A model generated the notes under the pieces. That model ran no database searches and had not been told where the DNA came from. It saw nothing but the letters and a program-made list of their open reading frames with translations. From positions 200,204-264,203 of IMG/VR virus record IMGVR_UViG_2030936005_000025: a stretch of 64,000 nucleotides of DNA. One strand, written 5' to 3'. This stretch comes from a virus (taxonomy: Duplodnaviria; Caudoviricetes). Shown in pieces: positions 775 through 34,187 of this stretch (the stretch's first letter is position 1; each line of letters starts with the position of its first letter). The translations under genes and the position numbers were made by a program.

Positions 775-800
775 ATTTACATTCACATCTGCCAGTTACT

Positions 801-904
801 GCGGTCGTGTCTTCAGAGGCACCGTAAATGTATGATAGTGGATGATTAGTTTCTACCACTGGATATCTTTACAATAGTTAGGTTAAATCCCTAAGGCCGC
901 GCCA
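801..904 (+). ncRNA. tRNA-like RNA A (long irregular helix instead of an anticodon arm)
   Basis: Acceptor GCGGTC(801-806)/GGCCGC(895-900) then G-CCA; hairpin GTGTCT-TCAG-AGGCAC; long arm GTAAA…AGTGG/CCACT…TTTAC; T-arm TTAGG-TTAAATC-CCTAA. Confidence 0.7.
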
Positions 905-913
905 GATTTATAT

Positions 914-1047
914 GAGGGTCGTGTCGTGGGACACAAGTTCAGTTATGCTCTAGCGATCTAAGATCGTGAACCCGTTAGCGGTGAAGATAGACAACTCTAC
1001 TTCAACTGTACTGAATGATAAGCCGAGTTCGACTCTCGGGATCCTCT
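914..1047 (+). ncRNA. tRNA-like RNA B (multibranched domain instead of an anticodon arm)
   Basis: Acceptor GAGGGTC(914-920)/GATCCTC(1040-1046); hairpin GTGTC-GTGG-GACAC; helix GTTCAGT/ACTGAAT enclosing sub-hairpins; T-arm CCGAG-TTCGACT-CTCGG; no encoded CCA. Confidence 0.75.
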
Positions 1048-5441: not shown

Positions 5442-6913
5442 TGTCTGCATTTCCAAAAGAACCCTCGTTGCTGTCGAGCAACATATATACTGGTCTCCAT
5501 CTCGCTGATCAAGAAGAACACGCCCTTTCTGATCAAGAGCTTCGTGAGCTTATTAATGGATTCGAATCCCGCTCTGAACCCCACACGTTATTTGGTCCGG
5601 TATTAAAAGCCAACCTTTATGGCGGCTTGGAATCCTACCTGAATAATAACGAATACGTTGCCGGGATGGAAGCCCTATCCCCTAACTTTAACTACAATCG
5701 TGATGACGCAGTTAAAGATGTATTCGATGGGTTAGTGGACGATCTCGTTATTAACCAACGTTGGGTATCTACCTTACGTCGTTATGTCTATGGTTTTGCG
5801 ACCAAGGACAATGATCACACTGAGTTCTTTGGTTCTCCTTATTTAGGGACACACCGTGTCCTGTTTAAGACCTCAGACCGTGTAACCTTCTTCCGTGATA
5901 TCATTGATGTGGATGAAGTGCGTTTGCGTGATGAGTTGATCAAAACCAAATGGATCAACAAAGACTTCAAAGTGTCATCAGAAGCTTTCAACTTGTCGAT
6001 CATTTATTTGATGTACCGCACCTACAATTCCGATCTGCCAAAGAACGTGAAAGAAGATGCACTGATCAACCTGGTGATGTTGTTCCACTACCGTATCATG
6101 ACCTCGATCATGAACCACTATTTTGGTTATCTGGTTAAACCGAGCGTGGCTATTACGGCGTATAACAAGCTCTCCTTGAAGTTCGATATCAAGAAGTACG
6201 GTTCATGGACTGATCTGTTTAAAGCCCGTGGTGAGTTTATCATTGATCCTCGTACCGGTATTCACTTTGATGCTTTCACAAAGATGGATAATGACAAGAA
6301 GATCGTTTACATGGTGAACGACATGGAGTCTCGTCTTAAAGGTGTGGTGAATGATTACACCAAAGTCCTGTATGAGATCAAAGACTCAGCAGACTTAGTT
6401 GAGACAGATTCTGGCTTGGCAGTCATGGAAGGTGAACTGAATATCAAAGATGTTCAGAAGCGAGAAACCAAATATAAGAATTATATCGCCAACGTCTTAA
6501 TGGACTCGAATAGTTTTTATAAACAGGAACTCGCAACTTATGCTGCTAAAGCAATTCCCCGTACTGACGAAGATAAACTGGAAATGATTCTCCGGGACTT
6601 CCCAAGTCAGTATGCCCACGCTAAAGGTGAGAAGTATCGGGAGTTTGTTGACGACTGCACAACCCACTTGTTCGAATATATCGCAACCAATGCGATTCGA
6701 CATCAAGACCTGAAGAACGTGTTCTTTAAGTTACGTGGTGCTTACACCTCAAACAAATCTTCCAATGCGCTACTCCTGAAGCTCAGAACCAACGGTGACG
6801 AGCTTGTTAAAGCCATGACCGGTATTAAGACGGAAATCAAAATAACGTCTCTACGTACCAGCCTGATGCTTTACATCGTTCTCCGTACTCTTGTTATGGA
6901 GTCAATGACCTAA
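5441..6913 (+). CDS. Conserved jumbo-phage hypothetical protein
   Basis: 490-aa ORF coupled to both neighbours. Confidence 0.8.
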   Translation: MSAFPKEPSLLSSNIYTGLHLADQEEHALSDQELRELINGFESRSEPHTLFGPVLKANLYGGLESYLNNNEYVAGMEALSPNFNYNRDDAVKDVFDGLVDDLVINQRWVSTLRRYVYGFATKDNDHTEFFGSPYLGTHRVLFKTSDRVTFFRDIIDVDEVRLRDELIKTKWINKDFKVSSEAFNLSIIYLMYRTYNSDLPKNVKEDALINLVMLFHYRIMTSIMNHYFGYLVKPSVAITAYNKLSLKFDIKKYGSWTDLFKARGEFIIDPRTGIHFDAFTKMDNDKKIVYMVNDMESRLKGVVNDYTKVLYEIKDSADLVETDSGLAVMEGELNIKDVQKRETKYKNYIANVLMDSNSFYKQELATYAAKAIPRTDEDKLEMILRDFPSQYAHAKGEKYREFVDDCTTHLFEYIATNAIRHQDLKNVFFKLRGAYTSNKSSNALLLKLRTNGDELVKAMTGIKTEIKITSLRTSLMLYIVLRTLVMESMT

Positions 6914-33623: not shown

Positions 33624-34187
33624 TTAAAATAAAGCCGCTTCTAAATCAAAAGCATGAATGGATTTGATATTCATCATATTCTTTCCATCCTTCATGGTCA
33701 TTAATCCAAGAGACCTGATACTGAGATAATGAGGAATACTCTCGACAAGCTTAACAGCCCGGTCATTAAGCTTGACAACCCCATACAAATTAATGACCTC
33801 GGAGTCACCTTCTTTAACGATCTCGTATGACTCAAGAGTTCCATTGACCGCAGCCAGGTTGATCGTCGTTATTACATTGATGAACTCTTCTACGTTTTTA
33901 GTTGCTTCTTTTCTTTTAAAAACGTCTGATTGTTCAAGCTCACCCAGATGACGATCCAACATTTTATCCATTTCACTGGCCAACAATTCTTCCGTTATAA
34001 GGAAAGTACATTGCCCCTGAAAGGATAGCTCGTTGAAAGTGCAGAGTAGAACTTTATAACGACCATCACCAAGGTGATCTTTAACAATGCGTTCTTTAGG
34101 AACTATTCTGGTATGTCCTTGCAACTCGAAATCATTTTTACGGACTTCTTGTTTAACAATGTATTCAGAAAGATCAACAGTTTGCAT
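33624..34187 (-). CDS. Hypothetical protein
   Basis: 187 aa; AAGG site. Confidence 0.8.
   Translation of the reverse strand: MQTVDLSEYIVKQEVRKNDFELQGHTRIVPKERIVKDHLGDGRYKVLLCTFNELSFQGQCTFLITEELLASEMDKMLDRHLGELEQSDVFKRKEATKNVEEFINVITTINLAAVNGTLESYEIVKEGDSEVINLYGVVKLNDRAVKLVESIPHYLSIRSLGLMTMKDGKNMMNIKSIHAFDLEAALF

Follow-up and report, generated by a model that had tools for sequence, protein, structure and literature searches.

What does a jumbo phage gain from an RNA that has both ends of a tRNA and no anticodon arm between them? The question is raised by element B, at positions 914-1047 on the plus strand of a 64,000-nucleotide (nt) stretch of DNA, here called the window, which forms the last 64 kilobases (kb) of the 264,203-base-pair (bp) virus record IMGVR_UViG_2030936005_000025. 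The initial annotation of the window had correctly given the element a jumbo-phage setting and a position in a tRNA cluster. On the evidence set out below, B is a previously uncatalogued family of non-decoding tRNA-like RNA.

Architecture and conservation of element B

B lies between two same-strand open reading frames (ORFs), 210-692 and 1121-1444. It starts 140 nt past a tRNA-Asn gene and 9 nt past the end of a second tRNA-like RNA, element A, whose encoded CCA ends at 904. All of its parts are on the plus strand. The predicted mature RNA, before CCA addition, is 134 nt long and was delimited from its fold, from covariation and from its score of 158 bits with a covariance model, R1. The 9-nt spacer (905-913) would form the 5' leader; the base preceding the acceptor is U in four of the five known B copies, and RNase P is predicted to cut between U913 and G914. 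The 5' acceptor strand (914-920) pairs with 1040-1046 in a 7-bp stem that includes one G-U (helix 1, two pairs compensatory). Abutting it, with zero connector nucleotides, is a D-like hairpin (921-934) with a 5-bp stem and the loop GUGG (helix 2, again with two compensatory pairs). The dinucleotide AA then leads to an 80-nt payload (937-1016; helices 3-6, each with compensatory pairs), which replaces the anticodon arm. Its 7-bp closing stem (937-943 with 1010-1016) leads to a three-way junction from which two hairpin branches extend, the first at 945-975 with an apical hairpin at 953-967, the second at 978-1009 with the apical loop CAAC at 992-995. At the place of the variable loop is the linker GAUAAG (1017-1022), identical in all five copies, followed by the T-arm CCGAG-UUCGACU-CUCGG (1023-1039; helix 7), with a 5-bp stem and the loop UUCGACU, and by the 3' acceptor strand (1040-1046) with the discriminator U1047.

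The acceptor and T-stem stack to a complete 12 bp. The discriminator, position 73 in tRNA numbering, is U in five of five copies, and no CCA is encoded after it, the following bases being AUC. The minimum-free-energy fold (-46.3 kcal/mol; z = -3.2 against 200 shuffles) shows the architecture just described. The 9-nt gap between A and B, the 7-bp acceptor, the T-arm and the 80-nt domain with its two hairpin branches had all been reported by the initial annotation and are present as it described them. When the whole 264-kb genome was scanned on both strands for a 5-bp stem with a TTCRANN loop directly joined to a 7-bp acceptor, only tRNA-Asn and B were matched; 20 randomised genomes gave an average of 0.25 matches.

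Conservation was assessed in nine phiKZ-related jumbo-phage genomes of 253-277 kb (G000-G003, W01-W05), comprising the genome of the window and eight relatives fetched whole. The relatives are Edwardsiella phage pEt-SU, Erwinia phage AH04, Klebsiella phage N1M2, Pantoea phage Survivor, Shewanella phage SXP01 and three IMG/VR genomes (G001, G002 and G003); their median protein identity to the present genome is highest for AH04 (74%) and lowest, at 52%, for pEt-SU, Survivor and SXP01. Three of them, pEt-SU, N1M2 and AH04, have been placed among the relatives of a chimallin-encoding phage (PMC10321303). A covariance-model search of jumbo-phage genomes had been proposed in the initial annotation as a check, and we ran both R1 and an nhmmer profile of B on all nine. 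Exactly one copy was found in each of five genomes (the present one, G002, G003, pEt-SU and Survivor), and none in AH04, N1M2, SXP01 or G001. The copies in G002, G003 and pEt-SU are 97.7%, 96% and 94% identical to B, against median protein identities to the same genomes of 72.5%, 59% and 52.6%, and the DNA flanking B is 68-79% identical or unalignable. No other sequence in the neighbourhood comes close to B in conservation. The divergent copy is that of Survivor, with no more than about 73% identity; folded by itself, it still adopts the same architecture.

The pattern of change within B follows its helices. In a model-guided alignment 96.5% of the cells are paired and 16 of 46 pairs have changed on both sides, figures that come from five copies representing effectively two to three independent lineages and from an alignment fitted to the model. 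All seven helices have at least one compensatory pair; none of 500 shuffles reaches the observed level of covariation, and controls in which the alignment was slid give at most three. Among the close copies there are about 12 substitutions at paired positions, of which just one breaks a pair; in pEt-SU, for example, a C-G pair of the T-stem has become U-A. All copies keep U55, C56 and a purine at 57 in the T-loop, and positions 54 and 58 are U and A here and A and U in Survivor, where the UGG of the D-like loop is also kept while its stem covaries. The longest invariant stretches of B are found in the payload (GUUAGCGGU, GACAAYUC and ACUGUACU). Judged by sequence comparison, then, B is a structured RNA gene under purifying selection and not a decaying tRNA; the initial annotation, which had argued for a selected RNA rather than a decayed tRNA pseudogene, is borne out by the compensatory pairs, the retention of every helix and the contrast with the neighbourhood. 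A coding function was considered and rejected, as no reading frame is open across B and a 55-amino-acid (aa) ORF at 966-1133 begins inside a helix.

B is also a self-contained module, because its neighbours and their order change from genome to genome. Four kinds of non-decoding element recur in these loci: A, tRNA-like, in seven of the nine genomes (18 of its 36 pairs compensatory); B, tRNA-like, in five; C, which is not tRNA-like, in six relatives; and D, a third tRNA-like RNA, in G003, SXP01 and N1M2. Of these, only A and B occur in the present genome, together with tRNA-Asn, C and D being absent; the order here is A, B and the 5' untranslated region (UTR) of ORF 1121-1444. B follows tRNA-Ser in G002; it stands between A and a CxxC-peptide gene in G003, between a truncated A and a small ORF in pEt-SU, and between C and A in Survivor.

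Wider database searches were also made. Motif scans of IMG/VR yielded two real copies, L011 and L093, both among the five counted above, the remaining matches being chance. A metagenome motif scan gave no real copy of B among the matches listed, and a scan of assembled-genome contigs gave chance matches only. Among 80 glutaredoxin-anchored viral loci pEt-SU was found again and nothing else, and blastn of B against 5,426 Escherichia coli genomes and the PLSDB plasmids returned no match. One R1 match in the window, at 6526-6603, lies inside coding sequence and was rejected as chance. An apparent 10-nt identity of B (UAGCGGUGAA) with the helix 23 region of 16S rRNA, absent from the Survivor copy, is one that we take to be chance as well.

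A search of public sequencing runs identified two environmental libraries with B-bearing contigs. The contig from a seed metatranscriptome spans 922-1119 with two differences, its B being about 99% identical, and diverges in the downstream genes. The contig from a rhizosphere library spans 907-1119, and upstream of this a differing 305-nt stretch replaces the 234 nt of the window. Both runs hold a small share of the query words, and the contigs give no ends, strand, level or transcription; they add two relatives in which B is nearly invariant amid different surroundings.

Relation to known RNAs and to element A

No family was assigned to A, B, C or D by Rfam 15 when the window, the locus and the loci of the relatives were searched, and positions 914-1047 gave no tRNA match even at an E-value (E) ≤ 10. 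ARAGORN likewise called tRNA-Asn only and not B. The resemblance to a canonical tRNA (RF00005) lies in the 7-bp acceptor with discriminator, set on a 5-bp T-stem with a UUCRANY-type loop, in the GG of the D-side loop, in the cloverleaf-like four-way junction topology and in the position within a tRNA cluster. B differs in its length of 134 nt and in having no anticodon arm of 5 bp with a 7-nt loop and U33; a 7-bp stem leads into the three-way junction instead, and the apical loops of the payload are of 3 nt (UAA) and 4-6 nt (CAAC or ACAACU). The D side departs as well. Whereas a canonical D-arm has the U8/N9 connector, a stem of 3-4 bp and a loop of 8-11 nt, B has no connector, 5 bp and 4 nt, and the UGG of the loop is the only tRNA-like part on this side. 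A transfer-messenger RNA (tmRNA) was rejected: ARAGORN finds none, the RNA has a length of only 134 nt, and the 3:70 pair is G-C, G-G or unpaired rather than G3:U70.

The closest known analogue of B is rnaC (species 1 RNA) of phage T4, whose neighbour is rnaD (species 2 RNA). Neither has an Rfam family. Both belong to the late RNAs and have been confirmed by Northern blot; rnaC accumulates in infection, its function still unknown after 50 years (PMC9697503, PMC12685909). Like B, rnaC closes a phage tRNA gene cluster, is encoded on the strand of that cluster and follows the preceding RNA by a few bases. With its 139 nt it falls in the same class of about 120-140 nt as B, with tRNA-like ends around a non-tRNA interior: a 7-position acceptor-like pairing is followed by an abutting arm without a connector, the T-arm is canonical with the loop UUCGAAU, the discriminator is a U, and CCA is not encoded. 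The arms are arranged differently, however. The long arm of rnaC is the first and the short arm the second; in B a short D-like hairpin precedes a long branched second arm. The rnaC acceptor has two U-U mismatches. The carriers are also unlike, T4 belonging to the Straboviridae and the B carriers being phiKZ-related jumbo phages. Run against the T4 locus, R1 gave 15.9 bits (E 0.05) for the 3' part of rnaC, which is below its score for T4 tRNA-Gly (20.4 bits). By this test B does not appear to be homologous to rnaC and, since the arms are also arranged differently, we set it apart from the rnaC family.

Two further systems invite comparison. In the engineered 'tRNA scaffold' of Ponchon and Dardel, reportedly described in 2007, a foreign RNA is placed in the anticodon stem and the host machinery is said to process and stabilise the chimera; the likeness to B is one of design alone, since one was built in the laboratory and the other occurs in nature. 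YrlA and the Y RNAs, partners of Ro60 (Rsr), resemble B as non-decoding RNAs with a tRNA-like module that are tied to phage-host conflict. The ends of YrlA form a Ro-binding stem and its tRNA-like part is internal, whereas the ends of B form an acceptor. B fails the defining tests for a tRNA, a tmRNA and YrlA.

Element A (800-904, plus strand) is a tRNA-like family defined by its fold, by a six-copy alignment with 18 of 36 compensatory pairs and by its own covariance model, R2. Its acceptor is directly followed by a 6-bp hairpin and then by a long arm, at the apex of which 15 nt (TGGATGATTAGTTTC) are invariant; a T-arm and an encoded CCA complete it. Copies are located at L011:286-390, L003:1502-1606, L005:1168-1272, L006:1167-1272, L002:1942-2045 and L001:1475-1533. 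The first acceptor pair is U-G (C-G in Survivor), and the 7-bp stem therefore runs straight into CCA without a discriminator; an alternative reading of this end is 6 bp followed by G and CCA. In the pEt-SU copy the whole long arm is gone, apparently through a deletion between GCAGT repeats.

The initial annotation had described B as a paralogue of A with the same architecture. As regards the order of the arms this holds: both have an acceptor, an abutting short hairpin, a long replacement arm, a linker of 5-6 nt and a T-arm, and both are kept by covariation in the same cluster. Common descent found no such support. R1 reports no A in the present genome even at E ≤ 10, R2 reports no copy of B at the same threshold, and in the pooled R1 search the best A copy scored 12 bits, behind T4 tRNA-Gly and a phage tRNA-Ser (13.9). 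The shared 9-mer GGTCGTGTC, which the annotation had also pointed out, is present at 803-811 in A and 917-925 in B; it is missing from the other five full-length copies of A (e.g. GGTTATGTC, GGTTATATC) and from the B of Survivor. A is moreover unlike B in its single unbranched arm with an invariant apex, its encoded CCA and its non-canonical T-loop, UUAAAUC, and the two differ in distribution (seven genomes against five). A and B thus appear to have a common layout without detectable shared ancestry, and are best treated as separate families.

A possible role for the branched module

How might an RNA of this design work? The reading that we favour, with a probability of roughly 0.55, is that B is a non-decoding tRNA-scaffold RNA in which the branched module is the working part. 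According to this model, tRNA-Asn, A and B would be transcribed as one plus-strand unit between ORF 210-692 and ORF 1121-1444. Host RNase P would recognise the 12-bp stack of acceptor and T-stem, together with an elbow formed between the T-loop and the D-loop, and cut before G914; a host 3' nuclease would trim after U1047. We assign the addition of CCA to the host enzyme because the phage encodes none, no CCA-adding enzyme having been found in its genome. The tRNA-like frame would provide processing and stability, as laboratory tRNA scaffolds are said to do, and the 80-nt three-way junction in the place of the anticodon arm would bind a conserved partner by shape. The invariant stretches do not exceed 11 nt and several lie inside helices, which argues against a simple antisense role.

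The partner would probably be a host protein or RNA-protein complex. When the ORFs of at least 40 aa in the present genome were compared by tblastn with the four other B-bearing and the four B-lacking genomes, none was present in all of the former and in none of the latter. Since no phage ORF co-occurs with B and no Ro protein is encoded, a host component or a core phage protein seems the more likely partner. The ORF nearest to the pattern of B encodes 187 aa (window 33624-34187, minus strand); G002, G003 and Survivor have it and all four B-lacking genomes are without it, but so is pEt-SU, which makes its link to B weak. Neither Pfam nor PHROG gave a match for it. A Pfam search for RNA ligases gave a sub-threshold match only, in a 659-aa ORF.

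Several considerations weigh against the favoured reading. Transcription, cutting and stability of B are inferred; a B contig in an RNA library could reflect DNA carry-over, and contigs cannot reveal ends. The zero-nucleotide junction between acceptor and D-like hairpin and the 4-nt D-like loop are unlike canonical RNase P substrates, and the partner search produced no partner. Four of the five copies of B are near-identical, and nearly all of the covariation therefore rests on one divergent lineage, in an alignment that was itself fitted to the model. Lastly, the high identity across distant phages could stem in part from recent lateral transfer, an HNH gene being present in the locus of two of the relatives.

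A broader and distinctly more speculative proposal would extend the scaffold idea to the whole locus. A, B and D, together with the non-tRNA-like C, might constitute a modular toolkit of tRNA-scaffolded jumbo-phage RNAs, each relying on host tRNA maturation for excision and stability and each presenting a different payload; the junction of B could then be an aptamer or decoy for a conserved part of the host's tRNA-centred immunity or of its control of translation. Were this tentative scheme true, B would be an RNA-based counter-defence factor and a model for the T4 species 1 and 2 RNAs.

Well behind the favoured reading comes a rival in which activity resides in the tRNA body, B acting as a decoy or sponge for a host factor that reads the acceptor end or the elbow. 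Candidates for such a factor are a tRNA-targeting defence nuclease, an acceptor-modifying toxin or a tRNA-processing enzyme. Acceptor, T-arm and elbow are intact and the decoding part is gone, and a decoy of this kind would leave translation undisturbed because it has no anticodon. The locus is accessory and shuffled among relatives, and the presence in it of all the true tRNAs of these phages, 0-3 in each, fits the tRNA-centred conflict that has been discussed for phage tRNAs (PMC13096335, PMC7824862). What a decoy does not explain is why the most invariant stretches, maintained by compensatory change, should be those of the payload, when the acceptor sequence itself is not conserved between lineages.

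B could instead act in cis, its shape recruiting RNase P to free or stabilise the downstream mRNA (ORF 1121-1444) or the neighbouring RNAs, with the excised RNA idle. The position of B between two same-strand protein genes, the conserved 5' UTR that comes next (1048-1119) and the occurrence of a terminator-like hairpin with a U-run only past the ORF, near 1455-1495, are in line with this. We nevertheless consider it doubtful: cleavage a few bases upstream is already provided for by tRNA-Asn and A, a simple tRNA-like hairpin would be enough where an 80-nt branched domain is 94-98% conserved, and in other genomes B precedes unrelated genes or another RNA.

It is improbable that B is aminoacylated through its acceptor/T-arm minihelix and U73 and then acts outside decoding, for instance by donating its amino acid or by sequestering a synthetase or EF-Tu. 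The full 12-bp stack, the U73 of all five copies and a 3' end that would be completed to CCA might allow charging; against it, the acceptor pairs differ between lineages, with a G-G mismatch in one copy and a bulge in another, and there is no G3:U70. Moreover, the synthetases that use U73 (Cys and Gly) need anticodon bases too, which B lacks.

Still less credible, and already disfavoured by the conservation data, is a functionless B, either a degenerate tRNA remnant or a selfish passenger of homing-endonuclease gene conversion. HNH genes do occur in the locus of G001 and G002, the tRNA-Asn of G001 has been cut to a 26-nt stub, and the distribution of B is patchy, with five of nine genomes; but the compensatory changes extend to all helices including those of the payload, the high identity is limited to B while its flanks differ, and no endonuclease gene adjoins B in the present genome. 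The least plausible role is that of RNA partner to a Ro60/Rsr-type protein, like Y RNA or YrlA: tRNA-like modules do pair with Ro in bacteria and some phages (PMC7824862), but a six-frame translation of the 264-kb genome contains no TROVE domain (PF05731), for which control genomes were positive, B has no Rfam match to Y RNA or YrlA, and its 5' and 3' ends pair as an acceptor and not as a Ro-binding stem.

Stable tRNA-like RNAs have been recognised in phage tRNA clusters since the 1970s in the form of T4 species 1 and 2, their role unsolved. The general phenomenon therefore has precedent, and what is striking in B is its design and the degree of its conservation: unrelated jumbo phages have their own, differently built versions, which are very strongly constrained and change places as modules beside the few true tRNAs. 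As a single small gene that joins a tRNA frame to a conserved branched payload, B lends itself to deletion or payload swap, and so makes the role of non-decoding tRNA mimics in infection accessible to experiment. It may also serve as a natural scaffold for RNA expression in bacteria. Annotation is concerned too, because such genes escape tRNA finders and Rfam.

The surrounding RNA locus

The first member of the RNA cluster is tRNA-Asn (GUU), at 699-774 on the plus strand with an encoded CCA, which was called by ARAGORN and by Rfam (RF00005, 71 bits) and is the sole true tRNA of the genome. In the nine genomes together the true tRNAs, which are confined to this one locus, are drawn from Asn, Ser, Cys, Tyr, Arg and Met. 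Non-decoding structured RNAs match or outnumber them there.

Element C is a conserved, previously unannotated RNA of about 80-100 nt, found at L001:1380-1465, L002:1683-1780, L003:1608-1710, L006:1078-1157, L011:1-90 and L108:5506-5610. Its core is GGGTACAACAGGCCAGGG ... ACCTGGGATCCACTTCCCA, the outer stem that closes the core covaries, and it has no match in Rfam. Element D, with copies at L011:193-286, L005:~1080-1172 and L006:~1290-1380, combines an acceptor-like stem and a canonical T-arm (loop TTCGAAT) with a replaced central domain, and was not called by ARAGORN.

Within the locus of G001 there is a homing-endonuclease gene of the Pfam family HNH_3 (157 aa; L108:4962-5470), which comes after the 26-nt 5' stub of tRNA-Asn; no intact tRNA is present anywhere in G001. 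In G002 an HNH homologue adjoins tRNA-Asn, just upstream of it, on the reverse strand of L093. The arrangement resembles that of segB in the tRNA cluster of T4. Gene conversion linked to homing may contribute both to the shuffling of the RNA modules and to the high identity of B across distant phages; beside B in the present genome there is no endonuclease gene. Upstream of the tRNA-Asn stub of G001, about 400 nt (L108:4560-4960) are gene-free, GC-rich and apparently structured, with no Rfam match.

Immediately 3' of B, a conserved two-hairpin leader occupies 1048-1119 of the window (plus strand). It goes with ORF 1121-1444 and not with B, since in SXP01 it stands between tRNA-Ser and the homologous ORF (L005:621-690), and it is probably a structured 5' UTR. 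After the ORF, at about 1455-1495 on the plus strand, follows the terminator-like hairpin with its U-run. A simple terminator scan did not flag this hairpin, which in AH04 and G001 stands after element C with 89-92% conservation. The transcription unit of the RNA cluster probably ends here.

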